A stretch of DNA of 64,000 nucleotides from an uncultured Flavobacteriales bacterium (GCA_913056345.1 CAJXMH010000003.1:38694-102693), one strand, 5' to 3'. Positions 15,219-42,978 are shown, counted from the stretch's first letter. A program made the numbers and translations. The notes: generated from the sequence alone by a model not told the origin.

Positions 15219-15767
15219 ATGCAAGCAAACAGAATTGAAAAGATTAACGCTATGGCAGAAGAAATTATAAACCGCGTGGCCAAAAGTGGCCTGATTACTT
15301 TAAACCTTGAAGAGTTTTACCCTGAAGGGGAAAGGATTTTGTACGACATCAAAGACAACCTTTGGGAAGGCATTGCTTTGAAAGAAAAAGATTTTCGTGC
15401 TTTTGTAAAAGAAAATGACTGGAGTCAATACGAGGGCAAATATGTGGCTTTGCATTGCTCGGTAGATGCCATAGTGCCTACTTGGGCTTACATGTTATTA
15501 GCCACTAAATTAGCTCCTTACGCTAAAAAAGTGTGCTTTGGCGATCTCGCTCAATTGGAAAGTTTGATTTTTGAAGAAGCTATTATCAAAAATGTGAATC
15601 CGGAAGAGTATAAAGATGCCAGACTAGTAATCAAAGGCTGCAGTGACAAAGAGGTGCCACCTTCAGCTTATGTTAAGCTTACTGAAATGCTCCAACCTTA
15701 CGCGAAAGTCTTAATGTATGGAGAGCCTTGCTCTACCGTGCCGCTTTATAAGAAGCCGAGGAAGTAG
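15219..15767 (+). CDS. DUF2480 family protein (Bacteroidota-specific, function unknown)
   Basis: 182 aa. The pattern SGLITLNLEEFYP..., KEKDFRAFVKENDW, DAIVPTWAYMLL matches my recollection of DUF2480, which commonly follows suf genes in Flavobacteriia. The true start may be the internal MAEEI. Confidence 0.7.
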   Translation: MQANRIEKINAMAEEIINRVAKSGLITLNLEEFYPEGERILYDIKDNLWEGIALKEKDFRAFVKENDWSQYEGKYVALHCSVDAIVPTWAYMLLATKLAPYAKKVCFGDLAQLESLIFEEAIIKNVNPEEYKDARLVIKGCSDKEVPPSAYVKLTEMLQPYAKVLMYGEPCSTVPLYKKPRK

Positions 15768-15769
15768 AT
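15713..15769 (+). repeat. copy A (functional) of the DUF2480 gene 3' end, including the stop codon
   Basis: aatgtatggagagccttgctctaccgtgccgctttataagaagccgaggaagtagat encodes ..MYGEPCSTVPLYKKPRK*. It is the reference for copies B and C. Confidence 0.9.
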
Positions 15770-15839
15770 GTGATATGATTACTTTATTTGCTCCTAGCTA
15801 TGATTCTAACAAATAAACAATGAGTATTAAATCTAATTG

Positions 15840-16253
15840 TTAATTCATATAGTAAGCTATATCTGGGAGTAAATAGTGTCTACTAAAACTTATTTTTAGA
15901 TAATATTGATTCAAGTGTTCTACAGTCCACCGTTGATCGTCAAGAAATAGAGTCTTATTATCATCTTCAAGCTTCCAAATTCCAAAGTGAGTGTCTTCAT
16001 CATCAGAATAGATGATATAGGTCCTGTCAGCATTAAAAATATACCTCTTATTTGAATTTACCGGATATACTGTTCCAAAAGTTTCATACTTGTAACAGTT
16101 CCAGTTTTTGGCAATTAAAAGCAAGCTTCCTTCTAAGTTAGAGAGATCAATAGGATTGTTGAGTGAGGGGTCATATTTTTCTTCTTCTTTTGAACAAGCA
16201 ATTATCAAAAGAATCAAAAAAAGAAATGGAAAGCTTGTAAGGTTTATTTTCAT
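15840..16253 (-). CDS. small lipoprotein, lipocalin-like domain (putative)
   Basis: 137 aa with signal peptide plus lipobox (LILLIIACSKEE). The GIWKLEDDNKTLFL..WTVEHL pattern is typical of lipocalin-like small lipoproteins. Confidence 0.6.
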   Translation of the reverse strand: MKINLTSFPFLFLILLIIACSKEEEKYDPSLNNPIDLSNLEGSLLLIAKNWNCYKYETFGTVYPVNSNKRYIFNADRTYIIYSDDEDTHFGIWKLEDDNKTLFLDDQRWTVEHLNQYYLKISFSRHYLLPDIAYYMN

Positions 16254-16368
16254 CTATAAAACTATGATAACGTACTAATTGCTTTGATACGCTATTCAAT
16301 TGATTAAGAAATGAAGATCTTTATTTGAGTCGAAATTAATAAAATTCTGTACAGCATGCCTTGGTGTT

Positions 16369-16425
16369 AATGTTTACGGAGCCTTGATCTACGGTGCTGC
16401 TCTATAAGAAGCCGAGGAAGTAGAT
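16369..16425 (+). repeat. copy B: decayed duplicate of the DUF2480 gene 3' end
   Basis: aatgtttacggagccttgatctacggtgctgctctataagaagccgaggaagtagat matches copy A at 49/57 positions ungapped by hand alignment, with the last 23 nt identical. In the copy-A frame it reads MFTEP*STVLLYKKPRK*, which has an internal stop. It ends 3 nt before the convergent mscS-family stop. Confidence 0.9.
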
Positions 16426-16428
16426 CAA

Positions 16429-17271
16429 TTACTTTTCCTTTTCGCCTCCCTGATAAACTGTCCTTCTCGGAATAGGGATTTTGATTCCTTCTTGATCTAA
16501 TTCTTTTTTTACTGCTTCTAGTTGTTCCCAAAACAAAGGCCAATACTCCGTTGACGGTACCCAACATCGAGCCATTATTTTCATATCGTATTCTCTTATT
16601 TCTTCTAACCTTACATCTACGTCTAAATGAGTGGCTACTTTAGGGTTTTTACTCAACGCTCTTACAATTACCTCGCGAAGCCTGTCCACATCTTCTTCAA
16701 AAGAGAATTTAAGCTCAAGGTCAATCCTGCGATACTTTTCAGCAGTGCGGTTGTCCACATCACTGTTTGAAACCCCTCCATTTGGCATGGTGATGATGCG
16801 GCCATCAAAGGTTTTTATACTAGTGTACAAAATGTCAATTTTCTGAACCTCACCTAGTTTCCCATTTACTTCAATCAAATCTCCCACTCTAAAAGGCTTG
16901 AATACCAAAATGAGAATTCCACCGGCAAAATTTGACAAACTGCCTTGCAAGGCCAAACCTACCGCAATACCGGCTGCCCCGAAAATGGCTAAGAAGGAAG
17001 TTGATTTTATTCCTAAGATCGATCCAACTGCAAAGAACAATAGTCCGTAAAGCAGGAAAATACTTAGGCTTTCAATAAAGGTTTTTAACGATAGCTCTAC
17101 CTTGGATTTTACTAACGCCCTTTTCAGCAGTCTCATTACGAACTTGATAATAAATACACCAAGGAAAAAGCAGATGACAGCATAAACGATATCAAGTCCA
17201 ATATCAAGTAGCAAAGTCTGAAGCTTAGACTTTAACTCTATCCAAAAATCTTGATCTATTTGTGTGGGCAT
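16429..17271 (-). CDS. mechanosensitive ion channel (MscS family)
   Basis: 280 aa with 3 N-terminal TM helices followed by FKPFRVGDLIEVNGKLGEVQKIDILYTSIKTFDGRIITMPNG, the MscS beta-domain signature. Confidence 0.88.
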   Translation of the reverse strand: MPTQIDQDFWIELKSKLQTLLLDIGLDIVYAVICFFLGVFIIKFVMRLLKRALVKSKVELSLKTFIESLSIFLLYGLLFFAVGSILGIKSTSFLAIFGAAGIAVGLALQGSLSNFAGGILILVFKPFRVGDLIEVNGKLGEVQKIDILYTSIKTFDGRIITMPNGGVSNSDVDNRTAEKYRRIDLELKFSFEEDVDRLREVIVRALSKNPKVATHLDVDVRLEEIREYDMKIMARCWVPSTEYWPLFWEQLEAVKKELDQEGIKIPIPRRTVYQGGEKEK

Positions 17272-17493
17272 TTCCGCTGAGAGGGTTAAAGGTTCAATGG
17301 TCTATCAGAAATCAATATTCTTTCAAAAGCTAACAAGATAGCAAAAATTGGCAGGAGAAGTTCAAATATCTTAGATTCAAGCATTCACCTTTACTTTAGT
17401 GTTTAACGGTAAAATCATAAAGCATTGGGCAAATCCTGCAAAAATGACGGCATTTAAATTTCATTAGGAATTAAGAATTTTCTAAAAATTAGA

Positions 17494-17537
17494 AATGTGG
17501 TATGGTGCCACTTTGTAAAAAGCCGAGGGGGTAAAAT
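17494..17537 (+). repeat. copy C: more decayed, internally deleted duplicate of the DUF2480 gene 3' end
   Basis: aatgtggtatggtgccactttgtaaaaagccgagggggtaaaat. Its core gtgccactttgtaaaaagccgagggggtaaaat matches copy A gtgccgctttataagaagccgaggaagtagat at 25/32 positions by hand alignment, and the aatgt head is retained. Confidence 0.75.
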
Positions 17538-17596
17538 TTTTAGTTTGAAGAAATGTGATTATAGTATCCGATACAATTATTTATAACAGATTGAGG

Positions 17597-18010
17597 TTAA
17601 AATAAAAGTAAGTTTCCCTTTTCTAAAATAGATTTGTTGACTGATATCTCTTTTCTAGTAAAAGATTGGACGAGAGATTGAAATTTGCACACGGTGAAGA
17701 CTAATAAGTTTTGACTTCTTTTGCTTTCTTCCTTCAAGTAAATGGAATTTTTATCAGTTTTACATATCTTCCAATCAAACATAGTGCTATTATGTTTAAT
17801 TGTTTCACCTAGTTTGAAGCCCAAAAGGTTTAGCCACTTTTCATCTAAAGTAATAAATTGAAACTTGCTGTTATCTATGACTATTTGATCCATATCACTA
17901 CCTTCAATAATCATCAATTTATTTAAATGGTATATTACTTTGTAAACTTTTTTGTTGCACTGAATCAATGCTCCTAGCATATTCAGCTTTTCATTTAAAC
18001 CTTCATTCAT
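17597..18010 (-). CDS. hypothetical protein (ORFan, AT-rich)
   Basis: 137-aa ORF with no competing ORF and no motif I recognise. Confidence 0.5.
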   Translation of the reverse strand: MNEGLNEKLNMLGALIQCNKKVYKVIYHLNKLMIIEGSDMDQIVIDNSKFQFITLDEKWLNLLGFKLGETIKHNSTMFDWKICKTDKNSIYLKEESKRSQNLLVFTVCKFQSLVQSFTRKEISVNKSILEKGNLLLF

Positions 18011-18138
18011 GGGTAATATTTTATATTAGATATAAAAGGGTATTTATGAAGTTTCCCTCATATATCTATTACAACAATTTTTGAAAATAGGTTGAAATTC
18101 ATCTAATCTGCTACGGTGGCGTCAAATGGTGTTGATTC

Positions 18139-18798
18139 TCACTTCTTTAATGTTTTTATGCTCCAAACCGAAAAAATTAAGATATATCTTACAGGAAAGG
18201 CAATTAAAATGAGTGTAATGAATGTGAGTTTAGTTTTGTGATAAATTTCTTTCTCACTAAGCTCGTCTTTTTCTTTGTAAAGGTCTGCTAGTTTGGGACT
18301 AATTCTTTTTCGCTGAGCCTTCTTTTTTCTTATTATTTTAAGATTTTCTGCATCTGACTTCGTAAATAAATTTTTGTTAATGAAAGACTTGAAATCTAAC
18401 CAATTGTAAAAGCCAAGTTCATTAAGCTTTTCTATTTGTTTTTGCGTCCATTTATAATTCCAGTAATGAGCTAAGCTGTCTGAATTGTTTAGTGATTTTA
18501 AATTTTTATTCCAAAACTCATCACTGGATTCATACTGATCTACAGCAAATAGTGATTTATATCTTTCATAAAATTGATTTCGGACAAGACTTTTCTTTTT
18601 TAGAGGCTCATTCAATAATTGAATCTCGTTTCGAAGTTCAGTATAGTGGTTAGAAGATTGCTGAATCTGATAATCTAATATTGAACTGTAACCAACAATA
18701 GCTAAATAAGTTAATATGGTCAAGATGCAACAGCCCAATAGAAACAAAAACTCTCTAGCAATTATTTTTTTAGTGTGTAGTTTCATATACAAATGCAA
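18139..18798 (-). CDS. hypothetical membrane protein (N- and C-terminal TM helices)
   Basis: 219-aa ORF with hydrophobic segments FLFLLGCCILTILTYLAIVGY and LTFITLILIAFPVRYILIFSVW flanking a ~150-aa K/N-rich region. The start may be the MKLHT at 18786. Confidence 0.55.
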   Translation of the reverse strand: MHLYMKLHTKKIIAREFLFLLGCCILTILTYLAIVGYSSILDYQIQQSSNHYTELRNEIQLLNEPLKKKSLVRNQFYERYKSLFAVDQYESSDEFWNKNLKSLNNSDSLAHYWNYKWTQKQIEKLNELGFYNWLDFKSFINKNLFTKSDAENLKIIRKKKAQRKRISPKLADLYKEKDELSEKEIYHKTKLTFITLILIAFPVRYILIFSVWSIKTLKK

Positions 18799-18932
18799 AA
18801 AGTACTAAATATCTAAATATATATAGAATTGTAGCTTTTTACTTCATAAAAGCTAAATCAACTTATATTTTACAATTGCTCTGGACTGACTTTCAGGGAA
18901 GAGACCTGCGGCAGAATGATGTTCATAAAAGG

Positions 18933-18966
18933 CAAAAAAAAGAGCCAAGTATTAAACTTGACTCTT
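18933..18966 (-). terminator. rho-independent terminator downstream of tRNA-Phe
   Basis: On the minus strand the stem is AAGAGTCAAG/CTTGGCTCTT (10 bp with one G.U), the loop is 7 nt, and a T8 run follows. It begins 6 nt after the tRNA 3' end. Confidence 0.8.
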
Positions 18967-18972
18967 AAAAGG

Positions 18973-19045
18973 TGGTGCCAGCTGGAATCGAACCAGCGAC
19001 ACAAGGATTTTCAGTCCTTTGCTCTACCAACTGAGCTATGGCACC
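18973..19045 (-). tRNA. tRNA-Phe (GAA)
   Basis: The reverse complement GGTGCCATAGCTCAGTTGGTAGAGCAAAGGACTGAAAATCCTTGTGTCGCTGGTTCGATTCCAGCTGGCACCA folds as a canonical cloverleaf. The acceptor is GGTGCCA/TGGCACC, the anticodon stem is AAGGA/TCCTT with loop CTGAAAA, and the T arm is GCTGG-TTCGATT-CCAGC. CCA is not encoded. Confidence 0.97.
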
Positions 19046-19134
19046 TTTTTTTATTGGTCGGCAAATGTAAAAATAATATTTAAGTCAACTTCAATCAGGC
19101 AAAAGATTTTTAAAAGCATTGCTTAGCTTTGATT

Positions 19135-19866
19135 ATGGCTTTTAACCTGGCAATCGATATTGGCAACAGCAAAACGAAGTTTGGCCTTTTTCAAACAAAG
19201 AAACTGCTGCAGTTTAAGGTCCTCGACAATCAAGCGCTTGCCGCAAGCAATCAACTTTTTAGTGACTTTTATCCTGAATGGGTTATTTTATCATCAGTAA
19301 ACCGTAAAGCCGAGCAACAACTTAAGCTAGATCAAATTTCTAACAAGCTGATCGAACTATCGCATAACAGCAAACTGCCGTTTGAGCTTTCTTATCATAC
19401 TCCTGAAACCCTTGGTAAGGATAGAATTGCCGCAGTTGCCGCAGCCCAGGCCGAATACCCAGCTCAAAATGCCTTGGTTATTGACGCCGGTACTTGTGTT
19501 ACCTATGATTTTATAGATCAGACAGGCAGGTATTATGGCGGCGCAATTTCTCCGGGAATTCAGATGCGATTAAAAGCCATGCACCAATTTACTGATCAGC
19601 TGCCACTTTTAAGTTGGGATGGTGAGCCAACTAATCTTACCGGGCAGAGTTCAATAAACTCAATGTTATCGGGAGCTGTTAACGGTTTGCGCCTTGAGGT
19701 AGATGGGTTTATTGAGGAATATAAGTCCAAGCATAAAAATCTAAAAGTACTCCTTACAGGTGGGGATGCTCCGCTCTTTGAAAAAGACTTAAAAAATGGC
19801 ATCTTTGCAGACCCAAATTTGGTGCTAAAAGGATTAAATGAAATACTTCTTTACAACTGCGATTAA
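19135..19866 (+). CDS. coaX: type III pantothenate kinase
   Basis: LAIDIGNSKTKFGLF, LGKDRIAA and VLLTGGDA motifs of CoaX. ATG 19135 is preferred over the in-frame TTG at 19129. Confidence 0.9.
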   Translation: MAFNLAIDIGNSKTKFGLFQTKKLLQFKVLDNQALAASNQLFSDFYPEWVILSSVNRKAEQQLKLDQISNKLIELSHNSKLPFELSYHTPETLGKDRIAAVAAAQAEYPAQNALVIDAGTCVTYDFIDQTGRYYGGAISPGIQMRLKAMHQFTDQLPLLSWDGEPTNLTGQSSINSMLSGAVNGLRLEVDGFIEEYKSKHKNLKVLLTGGDAPLFEKDLKNGIFADPNLVLKGLNEILLYNCD

Positions 19867-21184
19867 ATTACTCGCTTGCAGCCTTTTCCTTTTGCTCTTC
19901 AACTCTTCGCTTCAAGCGCAAAAAACCACTCATTCTCCATATTCTAGGTATGGAATCGGTTTGTTGAATCCAAAGAATGCAAATTCCAATATGGCTATGG
20001 GCGGCTTTGGCTATGCATGGCGTCCGCAAAATTATAAGCCGCAGATCTATGATTCTTTAGCTCGAAGTAATGCAAAGTTAAACGATCGAGGAACCAATTT
20101 TATTAACCTTAAAAATCCTGCCTCTTACTCAAACTTCAGCTTAACCACTTTTGAGGCCGGCATATATGCTCAAGGCGAACAACTAAGTGCAGGTCAGCAA
20201 ACCAGCACAGAAAATACTGCCTTTTTAAGCCATGTTACACTGGCCATGCCAATTGCTAAAAAGTGGGGTTTGGGTTTTGGTCTTCGTCCTTTTAGCAAAT
20301 TGGGCTATGATTATACCAATCAAGATATACTTGCAAGCGGACAAGTGGTGAATAACCTTTATAGCGGTTCGGGAGGTCTAAACCAATTGTTTCTAGGAAC
20401 AGCCTATGAGCTGAACAAAAACTTATCCATTGGAGTCAGTGCAGCATATGTTTTTGGTAGACTAGAGGATGAAAGTAGAGTAGTTTATGAAGAAGGTTCT
20501 AGTTTTTTCAATACGCTAGACCAAAATCAGTTGAGAGTTAATGACTTTACTTTTGATTTTGGGCTACAGTATTTCGCTTCTTTGAATCAAGATTATAGAT
20601 TGGTAGCAGCTTTGAATTTGGCTCCCATTTCCGACTTACAAGCTGAGCGCTTTCAGTTGATACGGAATTATGCAGGCGAGCAAGATTTTGAGAATTTCAA
20701 AGACACCATTAGGAATGTTGAGGCTTTAGAAACTCAAATTGCAATAGCCAGCTCCCTAGGCGGAGGGCTTAGCATTGAAAAGAAGGGAGAATGGCTCGTA
20801 GGACTTGATTACACCTTCTTCCAAAGAGAGGAAGAAGAGGTTGAGCCGGGTATAGTTTTCGATACTTACTCAGAAATAAACTTAGGCTTTGAACGTTTCA
20901 ATAAACTTAATTCATTTGGTTCTTATTTCAAACAAATGGGATATCGAGCAGGTTTACGCTATAATACGGGGTTCATATCCATTAATGGAGAGGCAGTAGA
21001 GGAGTTTGGCATAGGCTTTGGTATAGTGATGCCGTTGAGGAAGTCCTTCTCTACTTTAAATCTAGGTCTTGAAGTAGGCAGAAGAGGAAGAGATGAAGGA
21101 GCCTTAATTGAAGAGAACTTTTTAAACTTTCAACTTGGTGTAACCATCAACGATAAGTGGTTCATTCAGCGTAAATACGACTAA
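19838..21184 (+). CDS. outer-membrane beta-barrel protein (family uncertain)
   Basis: 448 aa with a signal peptide (LLACSLFLLLFNSSLQAQ), an SPYSRYGIGLL N-terminal motif and alternating-hydrophobicity G/Y/F-rich strands throughout. It overlaps the coaX end by 29 nt. Confidence 0.6.
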   Translation: MKYFFTTAIKLLACSLFLLLFNSSLQAQKTTHSPYSRYGIGLLNPKNANSNMAMGGFGYAWRPQNYKPQIYDSLARSNAKLNDRGTNFINLKNPASYSNFSLTTFEAGIYAQGEQLSAGQQTSTENTAFLSHVTLAMPIAKKWGLGFGLRPFSKLGYDYTNQDILASGQVVNNLYSGSGGLNQLFLGTAYELNKNLSIGVSAAYVFGRLEDESRVVYEEGSSFFNTLDQNQLRVNDFTFDFGLQYFASLNQDYRLVAALNLAPISDLQAERFQLIRNYAGEQDFENFKDTIRNVEALETQIAIASSLGGGLSIEKKGEWLVGLDYTFFQREEEEVEPGIVFDTYSEINLGFERFNKLNSFGSYFKQMGYRAGLRYNTGFISINGEAVEEFGIGFGIVMPLRKSFSTLNLGLEVGRRGRDEGALIEENFLNFQLGVTINDKWFIQRKYD

Positions 21185-21222
21185 TACTAACAAATAGATA
21201 ATCGAAAATTAAAACAATAAAA

Positions 21223-22521
21223 ATGAAAAAGCTCAGTCTAGTATTTTTAGCAGCCTTTCTAAGTTTAACCGCTTTCTCACAAAGTAAATACGGTGAAGAC
21301 AGTGTAAAGTGCGTTCAAAACCTTTCTTTATACCGCGATTACTACAAACAGAAAGTATACGATGATGCTTATAAATATTGGCATATCGTTTACACCATTT
21401 GTCCAGCTTCTTCTGAGCGGATGTATGTAGATGGAACCAATCTGGTAGAGTATAAAATGAAGAAAGCTGAAAGCAATGAGGTTAAGTTAGCCTACTTCGA
21501 TACTTTAATGATGGTTTATGACCAGCGTATAGAAAACTTTGGCAAGGAAGGGTATGTGCTTGGTAGAAAAGGAACAGATATGCTACGTTATAAAAGTTCT
21601 GATGCTGAATCAGCATACAATACCTTAGCAAAGTCAGTTGAATTACAAGGAAATAAATCTGAGGCTGGGGCTTTGGTTTCATATATGAATGCAGCAGTCC
21701 TCATGGAAAAGAAAGAAAAGAAGACCCCTGCAGAAATTGTGACAATTTTTACTCAACTAAGTGGAATAGTTGATCATAACTTAAAGAAGTATGCTGGTAA
21801 AAAAACTGCTTCTTATTATGAGCGTGCTCAAAGCAGTATTGAAAAACTTGCTAGCCCATACTTAAGCTGCGATGTTTTAATTGAGATGGCTACAAAGAAT
21901 TATGAGAAACAAAAAGAGAATCAATCTTGGATGGAGAGAACAGCTAATATTTTAGACCAAAAGGGATGTACAGACGCTCAAGTGTTCTTTGATATTGCGA
22001 ACACCATGCATGCAACAAACCCATCTGCAGTTTCAGCCGAGAAAATGGGAATCCTTTCTTTGAAGAAGAAGAATTACCGCGAAGCAGCTGATTTTTTCAA
22101 GCAAGCTTTAGAAATGGCTGATCAAGAGGCTGATAAATCTAAGTATTACATTGAACTGGCTCAGGCATATAGCAGCATGGGTTCATACAGCAGCGCTAGA
22201 TCGAATGCATTAAAGGCTGCAAAGGAAAAAGAAGGTTACGGCTTACCTTACATTATGATCGCAGATATGATTGGAGGTAGTTCTTCTGCTTGCAAAAGTG
22301 ATGACCCTTGTGTGCAAAAAGCCATTTATTGGTTGGCGGTTGATTATTTAAACCGTGCAAAGTCAGTAGATCCTTCGGTAGCTGAAAAAGCGAATGCTAA
22401 AATTGCAAGCTATAAAAAGTACTACCCAACCAAAGAGGATTGCTTTTTTAAGGGAATCAAAGAAGGACAAACAGTTGAAATTGGCTGCTGGATTGGTGAG
22501 TCAACCAAAGCACGCTTTTAA
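21223..22521 (+). CDS. secreted tetratricopeptide-repeat-like protein
   Basis: 432 aa with a signal peptide (LVFLAAFLSLTAFSQS) and helical repeat segments such as YREAADFFKQALEMAD and YYIELAQAYSSMGSYSSARSNALKA. Confidence 0.55.
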   Translation: MKKLSLVFLAAFLSLTAFSQSKYGEDSVKCVQNLSLYRDYYKQKVYDDAYKYWHIVYTICPASSERMYVDGTNLVEYKMKKAESNEVKLAYFDTLMMVYDQRIENFGKEGYVLGRKGTDMLRYKSSDAESAYNTLAKSVELQGNKSEAGALVSYMNAAVLMEKKEKKTPAEIVTIFTQLSGIVDHNLKKYAGKKTASYYERAQSSIEKLASPYLSCDVLIEMATKNYEKQKENQSWMERTANILDQKGCTDAQVFFDIANTMHATNPSAVSAEKMGILSLKKKNYREAADFFKQALEMADQEADKSKYYIELAQAYSSMGSYSSARSNALKAAKEKEGYGLPYIMIADMIGGSSSACKSDDPCVQKAIYWLAVDYLNRAKSVDPSVAEKANAKIASYKKYYPTKEDCFFKGIKEGQTVEIGCWIGESTKARF

Positions 22522-35265: not shown

Positions 35266-35592
35266 ATGAAGAATAAACTCAATTGGGAGGTATTTTCAAA
35301 TCAAGAAAGAAACAATTTAATCGAAGAATTGAAAAGAATCATATCCTCTAATGATGGTTGTATTGTAAACTTCAATTTCTTCTCCGACTTAGCTCTTAGC
35401 TTAACCATTGAGATTGAAGAAAGGAAAATAGAAAACTTACATAATGAGCTTAGTCGTGTAGTGACAATTTCGGAAATAGGAGTGAGTAAATTTGATGAAG
35501 ATTCGGTAAGAGAATGGTGGTTGTTTCTTAATGTTACCTTTAACAAAGGTAAAGGCAACATAAAAATGCATATACCTGATGTTCCAGGATAA
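35266..35592 (+). CDS. hypothetical protein
   Basis: 108-aa ORF with no recognised motif. It is the first gene of the accessory patch. Confidence 0.45.
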   Translation: MKNKLNWEVFSNQERNNLIEELKRIISSNDGCIVNFNFFSDLALSLTIEIEERKIENLHNELSRVVTISEIGVSKFDEDSVREWWLFLNVTFNKGKGNIKMHIPDVPG

Positions 35593-35845
35593 TGATGAGA
35601 AAACTCGCTATAGCAAAATCTACAAGATACCTACCCGACAGGTCAGTCGCTGCTTAAAGGCGAAGTTTGAATAATTAGATTGGGTACTTACTTTATTAAG
35701 GAAATTGGGAGTATTCCCAATAAAGAAACAGAAAAAGCAATTTTAGAAGCTAGCGAAAGCAAAAAACTAAAACCGATTGAAGATTTGGATCAGTTTTTGA
35801 AGAATTTATAAAAACTGAAATACGACTGCCAAAAATAAAGCTAAA

Positions 35846-36856
35846 TTATAGCGCAGACTGAGCGGAGCCGAAGTCTAACTTATCAATCACCGCCTCACTC
35901 TCAATCTCCATCATGCATTTAAAATGACCTTTGGGGCATTTTTTGAAGCCAATTTTAGAGCAAGGTCGACAGCTTAGTCCTTTTACTTCAAAAATAGTGG
36001 AGCGATCTTCTTTCCCTTTTTCATAATAAGGATACATGCCTAATTCAGGCACTGTATTACCCCAAAAAGAGAGAATAGGTTTTTGAAAAGCCGCGGCAAT
36101 GTGCATCATGCCTGTGTCGGGAGTAATAACAGATTTTGACTGTTTGATAAAAAAAGCCGATTCGTGCAAAGTAGTTTTACCGGCCACATTAAAGATTCTT
36201 TCCGGAGCAAGCTGCGCTAGCTTTTCTCCTAATGCTTGGTCTTCTTTTCCGCCCAGCAAAACAAAGGCCTGTTGGCTTTTTTCTAAGATCTCCCGCATTT
36301 TAACTTCTGGAATCTTTTTAGTGCCGTGGTTGGCGCCTAAGACCAAGACCACATATTGCTCAGCCTCGAAGGGAATATTAAGAGAAGGCTGAAAATTTTT
36401 CCGTAAAAAGTAATCTAGCCCCCCTTCATCTTTTTCAATGCCCAAAGCTTTTACCGAATCCAAATAGCGATCCACAATGTGGATGTCCGGCATGCGGTCC
36501 CACTTAAAATTGACTAGCAACCATTTTTTAAAGTTGAGTTTGTCGAAGGTGAAACTGAGGGCTTTGAGTTTGTTTTTTACCCTACGTGCCCGCATGTTTT
36601 TATGTAAGTCTACCACATAATCGTACTGCTCGGCTTGCAAGTCTTCGATTACCTCATTGGTGCTTTTTTCTATGGTGTAGACCTTGCTCAAATAGGGGTT
36701 TTCGGCCACCAAAGGAGCATACACTTTTTTGGTAAGAAAGTGAATTTCCGCTTCTCCCTCCACTTGCTTTTTAAGGCAACGGATTATCGGCGTGGTGAGC
36801 ACAATGTCACCAATGGAGCTGAAACGAATAATGAGGATTTTGACGGGAGCGTTCAC
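35846..36856 (-). CDS. glycosyltransferase family 9 (LPS heptosyltransferase-like)
   Basis: 336 aa with KILIIRFSSIGDIVLTTPIIRCLKKQ, TPDTGMMHIAAAF and a Cys-rich C-terminus (CRPCSKIGFKKCPKGHFKCM). Confidence 0.85.
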   Translation of the reverse strand: MNAPVKILIIRFSSIGDIVLTTPIIRCLKKQVEGEAEIHFLTKKVYAPLVAENPYLSKVYTIEKSTNEVIEDLQAEQYDYVVDLHKNMRARRVKNKLKALSFTFDKLNFKKWLLVNFKWDRMPDIHIVDRYLDSVKALGIEKDEGGLDYFLRKNFQPSLNIPFEAEQYVVLVLGANHGTKKIPEVKMREILEKSQQAFVLLGGKEDQALGEKLAQLAPERIFNVAGKTTLHESAFFIKQSKSVITPDTGMMHIAAAFQKPILSFWGNTVPELGMYPYYEKGKEDRSTIFEVKGLSCRPCSKIGFKKCPKGHFKCMMEIESEAVIDKLDFGSAQSAL

Positions 36857-36876
36857 AGGGAGTAAAAGTAAAATAT

Positions 36877-37344
36877 CTACAACTTATTGATACGTTTCAA
36901 TTCTACTATATCAAGCATATCCTTTGTTCTCATAGACTTTGCTTTGCTAGTAATTAAATCATTTAAATGAATAACCTTCATTTTTTTGATGCTTCTCTTG
37001 CCAATCTTATATTCATTGGCTTCGTTGTAGGCTTCATCAAAGCTTTTATTGGGATTGAAGTTGGTGATAATTTCTATTTCCTGTTCAGGTGAAACCTTTA
37101 TGGAGATATTCTGTTTTCCCTGCTTCACTTTATCCGGTAAACTATCAATCGCGTAGCCCAACTTTTGAAATACAGTGAGAAGTTTATTAAAGTTTTCATC
37201 CTTAGGTTTTATCCAAAAGTCGATATCAGCTGAATGCCTTTTGTATCCATAAAAATTAACCGCTGCACCACCAACAAGAAGCAATTTCACTTTTTCTTCA
37301 AGGCATAATTCAATGAATCGATTGGCTTCCTCCTCAAACTTCAT
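36877..37344 (-). CDS. minimal nucleotidyltransferase-fold protein (Pol-beta superfamily, DUF2204/DUF6036-like)
   Basis: 155 aa. LLLVGGAAVNFYGYKRHSADIDFWIKP fits the hG[GS]-x(9-15)-DhD NTase motif. The ATG lies 11 nt inside the upstream small ORF. Confidence 0.65.
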   Translation of the reverse strand: MKFEEEANRFIELCLEEKVKLLLVGGAAVNFYGYKRHSADIDFWIKPKDENFNKLLTVFQKLGYAIDSLPDKVKQGKQNISIKVSPEQEIEIITNFNPNKSFDEAYNEANEYKIGKRSIKKMKVIHLNDLITSKAKSMRTKDMLDIVELKRINKL

Positions 37345-37540
37345 TTTTATAAATACAAAAGTTTCCTTTGTTTTCGCCTAATTCCTTTGGGTCTATAAAC
37401 TGACTGAACAGATCGCTATCAAAAGAACGGAGAAAAGATTGTAAGCGTTCGGAAGGAGATAAAGCGAGAAACTCAGCCTCTCTTCTGCGATTGTTTTCAG
37501 CTTTAGTAGCAAAGTGTATTTTCTTTTCTCCTGTTCTCAT
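37334..37540 (-). CDS. small partner protein of the NTase (antitoxin-like, hypothetical)
   Basis: The track ORF is 126 aa from 37714. I prefer the internal ATG at 37540 (MRTGEKKIHF..., 68 aa) because a TACCTTTG box sits 9 nt upstream of it. It overlaps the NTase start by 11 nt. Confidence 0.5.
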   Translation of the reverse strand: MRTGEKKIHFATKAENNRRREAEFLALSPSERLQSFLRSFDSDLFSQFIDPKELGENKGNFCIYKNEV

Positions 37541-37549
37541 CTTAATTAC

Positions 37550-37557
37550 CAAAGGTA
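37550..37557 (-). promoter_or_regulatory. -7 promoter box (TAnnTTTG) for the small-ORF/NTase pair
   Basis: On the minus strand TACCTTTG lies 9 nt upstream of ATG 37540. A second similar unit (plus strand cttaaataaaaaaggtaag, 37577-37595) repeats 36 nt further upstream. Confidence 0.3.
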
Positions 37558-37767
37558 AGTATTGATTTACTAGTCGCTTAAATAAAAAAGGTAAGCAAAC
37601 AACTCTTCCCCTTTTCCCCTCTTTTACTTTTATTGCTAAGGCTAATTTTTTGTATCTTGAGCGTTGAAAAACAAGCCGATGGAAAGCCGATTTAAAAGGT
37701 ACAAACAAAATCAATTTTAAAAATCATTACATTCTTTGTATCTAGATTTAAATATGATTCATAAATA

Positions 37768-38262
37768 ATGGTCTTTGATAATCATATATTTTATTCAACA
37801 AATTCGTATTTGGCTTACCAAATAAATGAGAACTTCTATAATGGTATTCATTTTGTTTGGTGTTCTCCTGTTTTTGATAGTTCGGCACTTGCAAAATTTG
37901 ATATTAGAAAAAATATACCACCTTCATCCAACCCATATAAGATTTATCTATCATTAAAAGAGGATGTAGAAAATAACGATTTACACAGTTCAAAAATTGA
38001 TTCTAATAAAAAAGGTATAAAGGCAGGAGCATCAATAATGTTAAATAAAGGGCTTATTAGCGAGCATGAGTTCGCTATGATTATTAGGACGGTAGACACA
38101 AGTAGCCTTAAAGACTATAGACCTGTTTTATATCTTATTCCCAAAACACTTGTTAATCAAAAATTGGAAGTGGTTGATGTTGATGAAAAAGCTAATCCAT
38201 TAAGTGTGGAATATAGAATACTAGATTTAACAAGAGAAGAGTTTGAAATAATTGAATTCTAA
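37768..38262 (+). CDS. hypothetical protein (ORFan A of the AT-rich operon)
   Basis: 164-aa ORF in very AT-rich DNA with no motif I can assign. No competing ORF exists on any frame. Confidence 0.6.
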   Translation: MVFDNHIFYSTNSYLAYQINENFYNGIHFVWCSPVFDSSALAKFDIRKNIPPSSNPYKIYLSLKEDVENNDLHSSKIDSNKKGIKAGASIMLNKGLISEHEFAMIIRTVDTSSLKDYRPVLYLIPKTLVNQKLEVVDVDEKANPLSVEYRILDLTREEFEIIEF

Positions 38263-38266
38263 TTTT

Positions 38267-39148
38267 ATGGATATAATTTCACCATATCAGTATATAAACG
38301 CTTTATCTAACTTGACAAAAAAAGTTATGATAAAAAAGTATTCTATTGTTCAAAATGAAACCCTAAAATCAAAATCAGGCGATATTGAGAACGAGATAAA
38401 TGAGAGCTTTAAAAAAGACTTAGGATTTGGCATAAAAGAAATCAATCAATATGATCAAATTAAAAGATATGAGAATCGAATAGATTTAGAATTTTCTAAA
38501 ATATCTAAACAAAAAATCCTTAAGTATCCCATTGAAGATGAAATAGAGCTTGTAAAAATTGCTTCAAGGATTTCAAATGATTTTATAAAGCAATTTGAAA
38601 TTGAAGTTAACCCTGGAATAAGAGATTTTATAAAAAGAATAAAGTTTACAGTTCCTCAAATAGCAACTTTAGCTAAAAGAGCAAATAGAGTATTTGCTAT
38701 ACCAAATAAATCGAATCAAGTGAGGGATAATATTCTTCTTACTTCAAAAACCACTTATTTAAAAAGGGAATACAATGTTCTGATACACTTAAAAAAAAAC
38801 AAAGATAAAGGCAAAGAAAACTTCCTTATTGTTGTCGGATTTTTCTTGTTTCAAAACTCTTTTACTGAAAATCACAATCCTATAAGATTATTTCTGACTA
38901 CATTATTTAAATATGGAGTTAATATCAAAATAAATAAAACCACGAAAAGATTTTTCCTTGAAGAAATAGTTTTGAATAAAGAGTTGCATGGGAATATGAA
39001 AATATTGGAGGTAGAAGAGGACGAAAAAAAATCAAAAATTTGGGTTTCTGCTCCAACTTATATTAATCAGCTTCACACACAAATTTCTTTTTGTTACGGC
39101 TTCAATGAAACAAGGTATTTAAAAGATTTCTTTAATAGGGAAATATAA
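38267..39148 (+). CDS. hypothetical protein (ORFan B of the AT-rich operon)
   Basis: 293 aa from ATG 38267, which lies 4 nt after the stop of ORFan A. The alternative is TTG 38252 with an 11-nt overlap. The product is K/N/I-rich with no recognised motif. Confidence 0.6.
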   Translation: MDIISPYQYINALSNLTKKVMIKKYSIVQNETLKSKSGDIENEINESFKKDLGFGIKEINQYDQIKRYENRIDLEFSKISKQKILKYPIEDEIELVKIASRISNDFIKQFEIEVNPGIRDFIKRIKFTVPQIATLAKRANRVFAIPNKSNQVRDNILLTSKTTYLKREYNVLIHLKKNKDKGKENFLIVVGFFLFQNSFTENHNPIRLFLTTLFKYGVNIKINKTTKRFFLEEIVLNKELHGNMKILEVEEDEKKSKIWVSAPTYINQLHTQISFCYGFNETRYLKDFFNREI

Positions 39149-39267
39149 ACCCCCTTCCCGCGCGATTTTATCGCCTGGTACATGAATAATTTTCAGTAAC
39201 TCTCTATCTTGCTTGCTAGTCATTTAAAACCTCTTGAATGAGATCACGTCCTTTACTAAGCTAATCT

Positions 39268-39696
39268 ATGCTAATCTTCTTTTTGCTGTTTGGTCTCGGA
39301 AATTCTTTTTCTCAAAATAGCAAGCTTACAAAGCTCAATAAGAAATATGTAAAAGCCCATATGGATACGAGTTCGCTAACCGTGATTTTTAGCCATCGTT
39401 GTGGGTATAGTCTTTTGCTCAATAAGTTTTTACAGGAAGAAAAAGTATGCGAGAAGTATCAGGTTTCACTAAATATGTATGATGTAACTTACCTCGACCT
39501 TCCGGCTTTGAAGAAGGAAGAGGTTCAGTGGAACCAATATCCAGAATGCTCTAATACCGAAGTGCTAGAAAAAGGGAGCTTCCAATTAGCAAAACTTAGA
39601 CCTATTCTTTTTTATAAGAATCGCAAAGGGAAAGTGAAAAAAATAATGGGGTATAACAAAGATAAGCTTGTTCGATTGCTGCAAGCTAGTTTGTAA
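39268..39696 (+). CDS. hypothetical secreted protein, possibly thioredoxin-like fold (CxxS)
   Basis: 142 aa with a short hydrophobic N-terminus (MLIFFLLFGLGNSFSQ). VIFSHRCGYSLLL (CxxS) and PILFYKNRKGKVKKIMGY resemble thioredoxin-fold landmarks, which I recognise only weakly. Confidence 0.45.
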   Translation: MLIFFLLFGLGNSFSQNSKLTKLNKKYVKAHMDTSSLTVIFSHRCGYSLLLNKFLQEEKVCEKYQVSLNMYDVTYLDLPALKKEEVQWNQYPECSNTEVLEKGSFQLAKLRPILFYKNRKGKVKKIMGYNKDKLVRLLQASL

Positions 39697-39741
39697 AAGG
39701 CTTCAGTTTTCAAATAAGCAATTACTTCATTTCCTCAAACC

Positions 39742-39761
39742 CAAATTCGCTCGCCCCAGCC
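39742..39761 (+). repeat. distal (relic) copy of the tatD promoter-region repeat core
   Basis: caaattcgctcgccccagcc is identical to 40766-40785. By eye, weaker similarity continues for about 50 nt downstream, where ttgctaattcaaaactaca aligns with the tatD start atgcttattgatacccata at 12/19 positions. Confidence 0.8.
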
Positions 39762-39886
39762 CAAAATATTTCGCACCTTGCTAATTCAAAACTACATTTG
39801 TGCATCCATAATCCAATATAGCTTAACTATCGTCTAACTTTATTACTTTTTAGTAACCAGAACTTAGGTTGCAGTCTACCATAAAA

Positions 39887-40213
39887 ATGAGAAATAAAAA
39901 ATCTAGACGTATTGCCCCGAGTTCTGCCTACATTGGGTCTGGTAATAAAACCTCTGTTTTTTCAAGAAAGGCAAGAAAGCCTTTTCAAGATATGGCTGAA
40001 ATTTATAAAAATGAAGCCATAAAAATCAAAGGAAATCATGAAAAGAAACTCTTCGAAAAGTTAAGTGAGGAAGACAAGAAGTTAATTAGAGAGAGAATCA
40101 TAAGGAATAAGATTAAGGAAAAATGGAGGTTTCTTGTGATCTTGATCATATCTTCTTTTATGACCATCTTAATTGTGACTGCCATTGTGATTTTATTAAA
40201 AATTTACTTCTAA
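39887..40213 (+). CDS. hypothetical tail-anchored membrane protein
   Basis: 108 aa from ATG 39887. The N-terminal region is K/R-rich and the C-terminus has one TM (FLVILIISSFMTILIVTAIVILL). Confidence 0.45.
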   Translation: MRNKKSRRIAPSSAYIGSGNKTSVFSRKARKPFQDMAEIYKNEAIKIKGNHEKKLFEKLSEEDKKLIRERIIRNKIKEKWRFLVILIISSFMTILIVTAIVILLKIYF

Positions 40214-40230
40214 ATCTAACATTGCTAACT

Positions 40231-40701
40231 ATGAGGTTATTGACTTATTTCTTTTTTATTATACCAACACTACTTTATGTTGATTTAGTTGCCCAGGATA
40301 TCGATTATTTAGAAATCCGATCTGAAGTTAATTTATTGTCCTGCGGCAGTACAAGTGAGGAAAACTTAATTCAGACTAAAAAGAATCTGCTTCGTTTAGA
40401 TTCTGCTAGAATAGAAAGCAATATTGAAGAATACTACTACGATTTAGCAATGTGTTATAGCAAATTTGATTTGCTGACAGATGAGATAAATCAAAGTGAC
40501 TCTTCACTGATGTATAAGTTTCGTGCATTCTCCCACAAACCAGATCACTCACCAACCTTATGGTCTTTGGCTTTTCACTACTTAGTCGTTGATAATAACT
40601 GTGAAAAAGGAAGATACTACCTTAATCAATATAAAAAACATACTCCTAATCAATATTGGGACTATGATCAAATTGATAGTATTACAAAATATTGCAATTA
40701 G
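40231..40701 (+). CDS. hypothetical secreted protein
   Basis: 156 aa from ATG 40231 with a signal-like N-terminus (MRLLTYFFFIIPTLLYVDLVAQ). The 5' extension of the track ORF to 40123 overlaps the preceding gene and looks spurious. Confidence 0.5.
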   Translation: MRLLTYFFFIIPTLLYVDLVAQDIDYLEIRSEVNLLSCGSTSEENLIQTKKNLLRLDSARIESNIEEYYYDLAMCYSKFDLLTDEINQSDSSLMYKFRAFSHKPDHSPTLWSLAFHYLVVDNNCEKGRYYLNQYKKHTPNQYWDYDQIDSITKYCN

Positions 40702-40765
40702 TGATTTCTCTCCTGTAAAAGGTATTAGATAATGCCTGCTGGTGTTAACCACTATTTCTAAAAAT

Positions 40766-40785
40766 CAAATTCGCTCGCCCCAGCC
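40766..40785 (+). repeat. proximal (functional) copy of the tatD promoter-region repeat core
   Basis: caaattcgctcgccccagcc lies 22 nt upstream of the tatD ATG and is identical to 39742-39761. Confidence 0.8.
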
Positions 40786-40793
40786 TAGATTGC

Positions 40794-40801
40794 TATTTTT
40801 G
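40794..40801 (+). promoter_or_regulatory. -7 promoter box (TAnnTTTG) only 5 nt before the tatD ATG
   Basis: TATTTTTG at 40794-40801, with the ATG at 40807. Confidence 0.3.
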
Positions 40802-40806
40802 CGCCC

Positions 40807-41580
40807 ATGCTTATTGATACCCATACGCATTTATACAGCGAGCAATTTTCCGAAGATCGGGAAGCTATGATCCAACGGGCCATTGAGGCTGGAGTAGAAA
40901 AGTTTTTTCTTCCCAACATTGATTCCTCTTCTGTAAAAGGCATGAAAGAACTGGCGGTTAAATATCCGCTGCGCTGCTATCCCATGATGGGCCTGCACCC
41001 TTGCTCAGTGAGTGAAAATGTAGAAAAGGAGCTTGAGCTAGTTAAAAAAGAATTGGATGAGTTTCACTACCATGCAGTAGGCGAAATTGGCATTGACCTT
41101 TATTGGGATAAGAGCTTTCAAGCCCAACAAGAAATGGCTTTTCGCAAACAAATTGAATGGGCCAAGGAAAAAAACTTACCCATCGTGATTCATTGCCGCG
41201 AAGCTTTTGACGAGATCTTGAGTATTTTAGATGAGCTTAACGAAGATCGCTTGAGTGGAATTTTTCACTGTTTCACCGGAAGTTTGGAGCAGGCTCAGCA
41301 CATTTTAAACTACGGCAACTTTAAGTTAGGTATTGGTGGAGTGGTTACCTTTAAAAATTCCGGTTTGGATAAAGTGGTAGAGCAATTGAAGCTTGAGGAT
41401 TTGGTTTTAGAAACTGATTCCCCTTATTTAGCTCCTGCTCCCTATCGCGGTAAGCGCAATGAAAGTGCATACGTAGCTAAGGTTGCCGATAAAGTAGCTG
41501 AGCTCTTTCAAACTAGCAGAGCAGAAGTCGATAAAATCACCGGGCAGAATGCCCTCCAAATCTTTCAGTTAGATGAGTGA
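40807..41580 (+). CDS. tatD: TatD family metal-dependent hydrolase (DNase)
   Basis: 257 aa with LIDTHTHL, GEIGIDLYW, PIVIHCREAF, HCFTG and LETDSPYL motifs. Confidence 0.93.
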   Translation: MLIDTHTHLYSEQFSEDREAMIQRAIEAGVEKFFLPNIDSSSVKGMKELAVKYPLRCYPMMGLHPCSVSENVEKELELVKKELDEFHYHAVGEIGIDLYWDKSFQAQQEMAFRKQIEWAKEKNLPIVIHCREAFDEILSILDELNEDRLSGIFHCFTGSLEQAQHILNYGNFKLGIGGVVTFKNSGLDKVVEQLKLEDLVLETDSPYLAPAPYRGKRNESAYVAKVADKVAELFQTSRAEVDKITGQNALQIFQLDE

Positions 41581-42601
41581 TGCCTCTAAAGTGCTTATTA
41601 TTTACACCGGAGGTACTATCGGTATGGTGGAAGATCCAGAAACAGGATATCTACACGCCTTTGATTTTGACCATTTGTTGGAAGAAATCCCCGAACTCAA
41701 TAAAGTAGATGTAGAGCTGGAAGTCACTTCGCTTGAAAAACCGATTGATTCATCTAATATGGGTCCAAAAATTTGGGTGGATTTATTAGAAGTGATCGAG
41801 CAGCAATACAACGCTTTTGATGGTTTTGTGATCTTACACGGCTCAGACACCATGGCTTATACGGCTTCTGCCATGAGCTTTTTACTAGAAAATGTGAACA
41901 AGCCCATCATTTTTACCGGCAGTCAGCTGCCTATAGGTAAGATCCGCACCGATGGCAAAGAAAACTTGATCACGGCAATTGAGATCGCAGGGGACTATGA
42001 AAATGGTTATCCTGTGGTTCCTGAAGTAGCCATCTACTTTGAATATGCATTATACCGTGCTAACCGCACAACCAAGATCAGTGCTGAGAACTTTGAAGCT
42101 TTTCACTCGCCCAATTATCCGCTTTTGGCAGAAGCAGGAGTGCACATTAAGTACAACCGTTTTGCTATTCAAAAGCCTGAAATAGCACCGCTCATCGCAC
42201 GTAAACAAATCGTGGATGATGTGGCAAGCATCAAAATTTTCCCCGGTTTGCAGCAAAAAGTCTTTCAAGCAGTGGCGAATGTTCCAAATCTTAAAGGCCT
42301 TATTATTGAAACTTATGGTAGCGGAAACGCCCCTTCTTTACCTTGGCTAACCGAGGAATTGGTTGCCTTAAATGAAAAAGGGGTGATTGTGCTAAATGTA
42401 ACCCAATGTGTCACTGGTAAAGTGATTCAGGGGAAATATGAAACAGGGGTCCACTTAGAACGAGCGGGAGTGATCAGTGGGGAAGATATGACCTACGAAG
42501 CGGCCATCACCAAAATGATGTACCTGCTTTCTTGCGAAGAACTTTTATTAGAGGAGAAAAAGCAATATTTAGAAACCAACCTTCGGGGTGAATTAAGTTA
42601 G
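41573..42601 (+). CDS. ansA: type I L-asparaginase
   Basis: 342 aa with VLIIYTGGTIGM (catalytic Thr), ILHGSDTMAYTASA and ETYGSGN. It overlaps the tatD end by 8 nt. Confidence 0.92.
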   Translation: MSDASKVLIIYTGGTIGMVEDPETGYLHAFDFDHLLEEIPELNKVDVELEVTSLEKPIDSSNMGPKIWVDLLEVIEQQYNAFDGFVILHGSDTMAYTASAMSFLLENVNKPIIFTGSQLPIGKIRTDGKENLITAIEIAGDYENGYPVVPEVAIYFEYALYRANRTTKISAENFEAFHSPNYPLLAEAGVHIKYNRFAIQKPEIAPLIARKQIVDDVASIKIFPGLQQKVFQAVANVPNLKGLIIETYGSGNAPSLPWLTEELVALNEKGVIVLNVTQCVTGKVIQGKYETGVHLERAGVISGEDMTYEAAITKMMYLLSCEELLLEEKKQYLETNLRGELS

Positions 42602-42731
42602 CTGCTTGGCAAAAAGATCAAGCGTGGGCAAGTTCTAAGGTTTGAAAATATTTGTAATTTGGCAGGCTCGCCAAGCAGTTGGTGAGAATTACCTGCTGCA
42701 AAATAGGGTTCTGCCTAAGGCGGAAATAAAC

Positions 42732-42818
42732 GGAGAGGTGGCCGAGTGGCTTAAGGCGCACGCTTGGAAAGCGTGTATGCGGGAAACCGTATCGGGGGTT
42801 CGAATCCCTTCCTCTCCG
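42732..42818 (+). tRNA. tRNA-Ser (GGA), class II with long variable arm
   Basis: GGAGAGGTGGCCGAGTGGCTTAAGGCGCACGCTTGGAAAGCGTGTATGCGGGAAACCGTATCGGGGGTTCGAATCCCTTCCTCTCCG. The acceptor is GGAGAGG/CCTCTCC and the anticodon stem is CACGC/GCGTG with loop TTGGAAA. The variable arm is ATGCGG-gaaa-CCGTAT. The T stem GGGGG/CCCTT needs two G.U pairs. CCA is not encoded. Confidence 0.88.
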
Positions 42819-42857
42819 CAACGATAGGTAAATATTAATCGAGAAGTTCTTTTTAGG
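42811..42857 (+). repeat. att-like direct repeat, copy 1 (last 8 nt of tRNA-Ser plus 39 nt downstream)
   Basis: cctctccgcaacgataggtaaatattaatcgagaagttctttttagg. Confidence 0.85.
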
Positions 42858-42932
42858 ATTGAAGTAAAAACTATTGATTCGGACCACCGATAGGGGGTGA
42901 GAGTCGCTACCCGACTGAATAGGCGCGGCCTG

Positions 42933-42978
42933 CCTCTCCGCAACAATAGGTAAATACTTAATGAAATGTTCTTTTAAG
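42933..42978 (+). repeat. att-like direct repeat, copy 2
   Basis: cctctccgcaacaataggtaaatacttaatgaaatgttcttttaag starts 122 nt after copy 1. The first 24 nt match at 23/24, and overall identity by eye is roughly 85% with two 1-nt indels. Confidence 0.85.

Follow-up and report, generated by a model that had tools for sequence, protein, structure and literature searches.

Layered inserts at three gene borders

This study concerns three gene borders in a 64-kb window of DNA (the whole stretch that was analyzed, contig C3:38694-102693 of its source genome) at which copies of a gene end alternate with small accessory genes: the 3' end of a DUF2480 gene, the promoter and start of tatD, and the 3' end of a tRNA-Ser gene. 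The source genome, G000, is that of a salt-lake member of the Flavobacteriales (Vicingaceae), with 2.92 Mb in 66 contigs at 39% GC, and DNA of the window type was met again in hypersaline-lake metagenomes. A preliminary description of the window had proposed that, at all three loci, an intact terminus next to the live gene is accompanied by a decayed copy further out. The alignments and the controls (100 shuffles of the window sequence) upheld this proposal: the repeat pairs lie where that description had placed them, none was matched in shuffled sequence, and at each locus the gene-adjacent copy is intact and the distal copy degraded. The genomes compared included G001 and G002, which belong to the same genus as G000 (G001 at ~76% nucleotide identity), and L038, a contig that is ~85% related to the window. 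Strain variation was read from the Logan contigs of three salt-lake runs (X1, X2 and X4), which are short and mixed. The features of the three borders are the following.

15219-15767, plus strand: DUF2480 gene, anchor of the first hot spot (Pfam PF10652, E 2e-74); last gene of the suf operon, with suf genes upstream
15708-15769, plus strand: copy 1 of the DUF2480 end, live and intact (repeat alignment and core search)
15770-16363, minus strand: cassette 1, a 137-amino-acid (aa) lipoprotein-like ORFan (open reading frame, ORF, 15840-16253); absent in G001
16364-16425, plus strand: copy 2, a displaced older DUF2480 end with an in-frame TGA; aligns to the true DUF2480 end of G001, beside MscS
16426-17496, minus strand: cassette 2, an MscS-type channel (ORF 16429-17271; Pfam MS_channel domains)
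17497-17535, plus strand: copy 3, a decayed DUF2480 end with its stop codon kept (26/32 to copy 1 by eye, ~17503-17535); the allele resembles that of G002
17597-18798, minus strand: cassette 3, two ORFans (137 aa and 219 aa), strain-variable; missing from a run X1 contig
36877-39696, no strand assigned: older accessory layers between a GT9 glycosyltransferase gene and tatD, namely a nucleotidyltransferase (DUF2204/AbiEii-like) with a partner ORF, a 164/298-aa pair and a 142-aa gene (Pfam)
39731-39790, plus strand: distal relic of the tatD promoter and first codons (repeat alignment and core search)
39791-40754, plus strand: newest tatD cassette, two ORFans (39869-40213 and 40231-40701); absent in G001
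40755-40830, plus strand: proximal, live tatD promoter and start (tatD is 40807-41580)
42732-42819, plus strand: tRNA-Ser(GGA), live (ARAGORN)
42807-42856, plus strand: R1, the final 13 nucleotides (nt) of tRNA-Ser and 37 nt downstream (repeat alignment)
42857-42928, plus strand: stub, with a T-arm relic (42883-42898) and a truncated palindrome (42899-42928; CCCGACTGAAT at 42910-42920; sequence comparison)
42929-42978, plus strand: R2, a displaced tRNA-Ser 3' end and downstream sequence (repeat alignment)

The synteny of the window with G001 and G002 stops exactly at the DUF2480 end. Copies 1 and 2 (15708-15769 versus 16364-16425) match at 53 of 62 positions, with the final 23-24 nt identical, and a 27-nt core has two matches in the window and none in the 100 shuffles. 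All nine mismatches of copy 2 fall on the gene side, within 39 nt, and none in the outer 23 nt (P ~0.01). The direction and order of insertion were read directly from the relatives. In G001, MscS abuts the DUF2480 stop codon with no lipoprotein gene between, and since copy 2 aligns to that true end, 15770-16363 was designated an insertion and copy 2 the older end of the gene. The MscS gene at this site is present in G001 and absent from G002 and from four other genera. No relics at the DUF2480 end were found in the six relatives examined, and the relatives recovered by a metagenome scan with the DUF2480 core were all relic-free.

A second view of this border came from L038, in which the suf operon and DUF2480 are followed by a gene for a 470-aa ATPase, a first relic, the gene for the lipoprotein and another relic. 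A newer cassette has come in beside DUF2480 in this case, with one further relic as the result. The lipoprotein gene of L038, at 82% identity and the same DUF2480 site, is the sole homologue of the 15840-16253 ORF; neither this ORF nor those of cassette 3 had a Pfam or PADLOC match. Between G000 and L038, identity is 88.6% for the lipoprotein cassette and 82-84% for the flanking suf and DUF2480 genes, and the higher value for the cassette suggests that it has spread laterally. A hairpin of ~50 nt, ATATTCCGCCAAAAG...TTTGGCGGAATAT, bounds the ATPase cassette on both sides (4540-4600 and 6019-6070 of the L038 reverse complement). The cassette had no DNA match in G000, and in a run X4 contig the DUF2480 end is followed by the hairpin of an ATPase cassette of the L038 type.

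Variation between strains was observed directly in the salt-lake contigs. A run X1 contig joins 17523 to 18890 (relic 3 to the tRNA-Phe side) with 22 other letters, and thus does not contain the two ORFans of cassette 3; junctions of relic and MscS with unrelated DNA in front were also present. A run X2 joint of 15767 to 16435 was considered as an empty site and rejected, because unrelated DNA precedes its 54-nt piece, which makes it a relic-MscS junction behind a different cassette. Within the window, 16188-16210 in the insert resembles 15569-15591 in the interior of DUF2480 on the same strand (21/23, E 3e-4), which could be chance or an older, longer relic.

At tatD, 39731-39761 and 40755-40785 match at 27 of 31 positions, including a perfect 20-mer that occurs twice in the window and in none of the shuffles; here also the relic combines this perfect 20-mer with a decayed gene side. 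By eye, and with indels, the similarity extends across the -7 box and ~25 coding nt. As such, the repeat, which had been described as the 5' end of tatD, does include the first codons, but it is mainly promoter and 5' untranslated region. The GT9 gene and tatD are ~110 nt apart in four other genera and are separated by 3.9 kb of accessory genes in G000. In G001 the 142-aa gene abuts tatD, the two newest ORFans are absent, and the site has its own independent 50-nt repeat (48/50) flanking a 1.7-kb insert. The depth over the two tatD-adjacent ORFans was zero in related strains from the salt-lake runs, and no homologue of the 156-aa ORF (40231-40701) was found among 5.8 billion proteins. The innermost layer of the island, at 36877-37714, is common to G001 and consists of a 155-aa nucleotidyltransferase (DUF2204/DUF6036/AbiEii-like) that overlaps an upstream ORF, as a toxin-antitoxin-like pair. 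A same-strand similarity was also noted between the insert and the interior of tatD (40702-40732 versus 40920-40950; 25/31, E 0.006), for which chance or an older, longer relic is possible.

At tRNA-Ser, R1 and R2 (42807-42856 versus 42929-42978) match at 41 of 50 positions around a 72-nt stub, and a 24-mer core occurs twice in the window and never in the shuffles. The duplicated segment had been called the 3' end of the tRNA, which holds for its first 13 nt, the other 37 nt being downstream sequence; the stub proved not to be anonymous DNA, since it contains the T-arm relic and the palindrome. G001 has an orthologous stub with a variant hairpin. The relic is present in G001, G009 and G011 and absent in G002 and G018, and runs X1 and X4 each yielded tRNA-Ser contigs both with and without the stub and R2. 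The similarity of R1 to R2 within one genome is 0.84 and 0.75, versus 0.62-0.74 for orthologous copies between genomes, which indicates that the duplicates have been renewed or homogenized.

One alternative is that a gene end was duplicated in tandem and then diverged, or that the repeats arose by chance or are promoters, terminators or other regulatory motifs. The tatD repeat does contain a promoter, and some local repeats elsewhere in G000 (C15, C27 and C14) are just terminators or repetitive extragenic palindromic (REP) hairpins. However, the similarity covers only ~50 nt per unit, the inserts are missing from relatives, shuffled sequence gave no matches, and a comparison of the window inserts with neighboring genes (blastn and tblastx) found no homology beyond two weak matches of 23-24 nt. 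Tandem duplication was ruled out because the inserts are not homologous to the flanking genes, and the alternative as a whole is highly improbable. The relatives' loci and the insert homology search instead agree with the earlier suggestion that these are insertion footprints at recurrent sites.

Relics and recombinases across the genome

The same kind of relic was sought at all gene termini of G000, using a crude ORF call and counting partial copies that lay <=6 kb away, with paralogue ends left out and the expectation taken from the density of distant matches. Thirty of 4,653 ORF termini had a local non-paralogous partial copy, versus 1.5 expected. The preliminary description had named the lack of such an excess as grounds for abandoning the pattern, and an excess is what was observed. 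In addition, at least nine of the 34 tRNA genes, and the transfer-messenger RNA gene, had partial copies 60-330 nt away. Repeat lengths across G000 are variable, from 30 to 300 nt. Clear relic arrays among the 30 termini were those of contig C8 and those of C12, C4 and C33, the last three with repeats of 227-301 nt. A longer array that resembles the DUF2480 one was noted at C8:2363-8290, where four copies of a 100-280-nt block (gene 3' end and intergenic DNA) separate three cassettes that include HigBA-like and other toxin-antitoxin pairs. At C13:9674-9937, three tandem 63-nt units precede a tRNA-Arg gene, each opening with the first 12 nt of the tRNA.

The internal structure of a relic was also examined on contig C1, where a PDC-S01 gene (AAA_14 and DUF4143) lies between an intact gene end and its 231-nt relic. 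The two copies have all of their eight differences in the 58 nt on the gene side and none in the outer 172 nt, a distribution with a chance of (58/231)^8, or ~2e-5. Such a core-plus-arm pattern would not be expected from a decaying target duplication or from a single crossover with a uniformly diverged donor; it fits an element that carries a diverged arm and repeatedly recombines in an identical core, by means of a site-specific recombinase or of host recombination. An identical outer core with a diverged gene-side arm thus speaks for recombination within the core in place of the "replacement gene ends" that had been suggested for these loci.

Recombinases were surveyed by six-frame profile searches that read through stop codons. 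The earlier statement that no integrase or transposase is visible in the 64 kb extends to the whole contig, and no recombinase gene was found at the relic sites. In the 2.9 Mb, PF00589 identified only two tyrosine recombinases of ~300 aa, with XerC/XerD-type motifs, on C1 and C11, and no phage-type integrase was detected, pseudogene remnants included. The single PF00239 match is a large serine recombinase beside tRNA-Leu on a 2.5-kb contig (C62:545-2124), and the three genomes of the genus have just one gene of this kind apiece. One rve transposase gene is present in G000, on a contig other than that of the window. The transposase, terminal inverted repeats and short, fixed target duplication of a transposon or insertion sequence (IS) are not what is seen at these borders, where the repeats are of 30-300 nt and the contig has no transposase. 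Integration of the Xer/dif type was ruled out, given that the three cores share nothing.

This census bears on the proposal that the loci are decayed classical islands, that is, larger tyrosine-integrase elements at gene-end att sites from which the integrase and most genes have since been deleted, leaving attL, cargo and attR. Direct repeats of 45-60 nt at the ends of tRNA and protein genes, with the newest layer next to the gene, are typical of integrase islands. Tycheposons of Prochlorococcus integrate repeatedly at one site, with newcomers pushing older elements outward and partial tRNA copies left between them (bioRxiv 10.1101/2020.12.28.424599), and an identical core with a diverged arm is att-like. 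Nevertheless, the gene-end direct repeats of an att-flanked island are present here with no integrase inside or beside them, and whereas tycheposons have tyrosine recombinases and degraded integrases, none were found genome-wide in G000 save the two Xer-like genes. Furthermore, every layer is a single gene or gene pair, stacked in order, L038 likewise has single-gene layers, and dozens of sites would each need to have lost an integrase completely with both att copies kept. We consider decayed islands, which had been put forward in the preliminary description, unlikely.

A recombinase that acts in trans, encoded elsewhere or on a visiting element, could alternatively insert integrase-less cassettes in an integron-like or cis-mobilizable-like manner. 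In integrons, promoterless or single-gene cassettes are stacked by a fixed site with the newest proximal, and attC arrays can exist without an integrase. The likeness to the present loci is one of logic only, in the ordered cassettes with the newest proximal; here intI and attC are both absent, the cassettes are separated by copies of the end of the anchor gene, which were non-palindromic when read, and there are several unrelated anchors per genome. Capture in trans would account for single-gene cassettes in ordered arrays with the newest by the anchor, for the clustered relic lengths at DUF2480 and for the short, perfect cores, and the large serine recombinase beside tRNA-Leu, one per genome of the genus, is available as a candidate. 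Set against this are the lack of a common sequence among the three cores and the spread of repeat lengths across the genome. To our knowledge, large serine recombinases make no long direct repeats, which further disfavors this explanation, and we regard it as doubtful.

Nuclease cassettes and the palindrome of broken tRNA genes

Two cassettes at protein-gene ends encode predicted nucleases. The L038 ATPase was identified as PADLOC PDC-S27 (E 1e-190; ATPase_2 and DUF234), and DUF234 and DUF4143, the latter found in the PDC-S01 protein of C1, are both listed as PD-(D/E)XK nucleases (PMC3424549). Two kinds of predicted nuclease gene thus have the architecture of the window cassettes.

At tRNA genes a different nuclease was associated with the relics. 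Broken tRNA copies carry a 36-nt palindrome, CCCGCCCGACTGAATGGCTTCAGCCGTTCGGGCGGG, with a predicted fold of -14.4 kcal/mol (z = -4.8). In 15 of 15 matches, from five genomes of the family, the palindrome interrupts the T-loop exactly between GGTTC and GAnTCC, in either orientation; one tRNA relic has two hairpins in tandem. More broadly, in Bacteroidota and Patescibacteria the palindrome was found in the T-loop or D-loop of tRNA relics, often by an 80-aa GIY-YIG gene. G000 has six small GIY-YIG genes, all in regions with local direct repeats and two of them at borders of protein genes, and an 82-aa GIY-YIG gene forms the insert at the tRNA-Met gene of C6. Among 185,579 species genomes, 66 palindrome loci were detected, in Bacteroidota and many Patescibacteria lineages. 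A GIY-YIG ORF lay <=600 nt away in 13 of the 66, versus a background of ~0.25%, and of 77 palindrome copies at least 30 adjoin part of a tRNA, either its last 18-20 nt or its first ~20 nt. The association of palindrome, GIY-YIG gene and tRNA relic is thus a direct observation. Rfam had no family for the palindrome, and no published account of an element made up of a GIY-YIG gene, a tRNA relic and this palindrome was found in the literature searched.

The most regular example is in a Bacteroidales metagenome-assembled genome (MAG; L064:1986-5050 of CAVUJY010000019.1), in which a tRNA-Arg gene is followed by nine near-identical tandem units of 327 nt, each composed of a tRNA 3' end, an 85-aa GIY-YIG ORF that has its stop codon within the palindrome, a T-stem relic and the 36-nt palindrome itself. 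A truncated IS200/RAYT-like (Y1) gene lies beside tRNA-Gln at C14:3360-5139, flanked by 31-nt REP-like hairpins, and is absent from G001 and G002. IS200/RAYT was considered as the agent of the palindrome and rejected: G000 has the one truncated copy, the palindrome-bearing G001 and G002 have none, and its own REPs are unrelated.

The stub at tRNA-Ser shares one of the two features of this element. The truncated palindrome at 42899-42928 occupies the T-loop position of the tRNA-Ser relic, and the chance of a palindrome match in a 40-nt space is ~1e-4, as estimated from 13 matches not adjacent to tRNA genes in 5.8 Mb. The GIY-YIG ORF is missing: no ORF is present in the stub, between the live and the broken tRNA-Ser, and the similarity of the stub to the 3' end of a GIY-YIG gene was not significant (45 of 500 shuffles). 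For these two reasons we classed the stub as a gene-less remnant and not as a full member of the element.

Free-standing GIY-YIG genes near tRNA genes are known from phage T4, in which the homing endonuclease SegB lies in the tRNA cluster and spreads, with flanking DNA, by break repair. The genes described here are likewise beside tRNA genes, but they encode bare GIY-YIG domains of 80-85 aa with no DNA-binding domain, and they lie between a live and a broken tRNA copy with the palindrome at the junction.

Proposed accretion of cassettes by recombination in a short core

The reading that we favor, with a rough probability of 0.55 for the whole, is that cassettes accrete at gene ends without an integrase, by recombination in a short core, that this process is probably fed by breaks from selfish nucleases, and that the stub at tRNA-Ser is what is left of a gutted GIY-YIG-plus-palindrome element, one that would enter tRNA loops with one intact tRNA kept. 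On this reading the three loci are hot spots where insertion recurs at the outer borders of conserved genes, and small accessory cassettes of one or two genes each have been added there in succession. Each addition would take place by recombination in a core over which incoming DNA and gene end do not differ (20-24 nt here, up to 172 nt elsewhere in G000), and would leave the far side of the cassette with an extra gene-end copy, so that the newest cassette adjoins the live gene, and older cassettes and their relics would be pushed outward, decaying. Because the cassettes have no recombinase and the genome has no phage-type integrase, we infer that entry and exit depend on host recombination at the core. 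Breaks made by selfish nuclease cassettes of exactly the same architecture probably help, the candidates being, at tRNA genes, the small GIY-YIG genes and, at the ends of protein genes, the AAA-ATPase/PD-(D/E)XK proteins PDC-S27 and PDC-S01.

Several results weigh against this reading. In the short, mixed Logan contigs there was no circular or excised form, no circle junction and no clean empty site with a single core, and joints had extra letters. Cores of 20-24 nt are short for RecA-dependent exchange, and the lengths of the relics at the DUF2480 site cluster at 33-62 nt, which looks more site-specific than random homology-anchored joining. The cassettes of the window had no nuclease domain or GIY-YIG remnant by Pfam, PADLOC or GIY-YIG comparison. 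The tRNA-Ser repeat is better conserved on its gene side, opposite to the protein-gene sites; there, the conserved core is the tRNA 3' end itself. Some of the 30 termini from the crude ORF call are terminators, tandem repeats or REP hairpins. Finally, no motif is common to the three cores, a result that equally does not indicate one dedicated enzyme. A cassette-capture process not yet described, as had been raised for this lineage, is possible.

One of the closest parallels is with the mobile endonuclease ORFs (mORFs) of fungal mitochondria (Allomyces atp6; Glomus atp6, atp9, cox2 and nad3), in which a gene core is followed by an intact end, an inserted ORF that encodes a GIY-YIG or other nuclease, and the displaced native end decaying downstream (PMC3630166). 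An intact end and a displaced native end around an insert are also seen in the window. The endonuclease is not in the window inserts and is found at sister sites (PDC-S27 in L038, PDC-S01 on C1 and the GIY-YIG gene at tRNA-Met), such that the GIY-YIG cassettes at tRNA genes and the two PDC cassettes at protein-gene ends have the mORF layout. The comparison is one of layout; elements of the mORF type are further defined by a donor-derived live end and by cleavage of the empty allele. The present case differs in that it is in a bacterial chromosome, in that the targets are tRNA loops and 3' ends and also promoters and 5' ends, and in the 36-nt palindrome at the junction. From mORFs, tycheposon accretion and integrons alike, it differs in a defining feature each.

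We speculate, with less confidence than in the reading for the three borders, that Bacteroidota and Patescibacteria share an integrase-free economy of cassettes. In this tentative scheme minimal selfish nucleases (the 80-aa GIY-YIG protein with its 36-nt palindrome, PDC-S01 and PDC-S27) would cut gene borders or tRNA loops, repair would leave a relic, and the relic cores would become landing pads for single-gene cassettes (lipoprotein, MscS, toxin-antitoxin and ORFans) that strains gain, lose and pass to one another. The pattern, which is common and extends across phyla, points to a way of gaining genes that is as yet undescribed. If the scheme is true, much of the flexible gene content of streamlined genomes poor in mobile elements would be built at a few dozen gene borders with no integrase needed, which bears on an old question, that of gene gain and loss in bacteria that have no plasmids, prophages or integrases. 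It would also give a testable role to the very large family of bare GIY-YIG (UPF0213-type) proteins and to two ATPase-nucleases listed as phage defence candidates. In practice, gene-end relics and hairpin-tagged tRNA fragments could be used as markers of recent gene acquisition.

Two further sets of hairpins were noted. In the Bacteroidota MAG RYN_297 (loci L047-L109), the palindrome is dispersed over >15 contigs in a fixed context that is not tRNA (atagaacg-palindrome-ctgatt), and has the appearance of an offshoot resembling miniature inverted-repeat transposable elements. At C6:2042-2233, C31:8661-8725, C35:14651-14713 and C8:6385-7557, hairpins of a second family, (T/C)CACGC(C)-loop-(G)GCGTG(A/G), were noted. 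In 5' tRNA relics they stand in place of the anticodon arm or D-loop or break it up, and on C8 they are also inserted in the relics of a protein-gene end.

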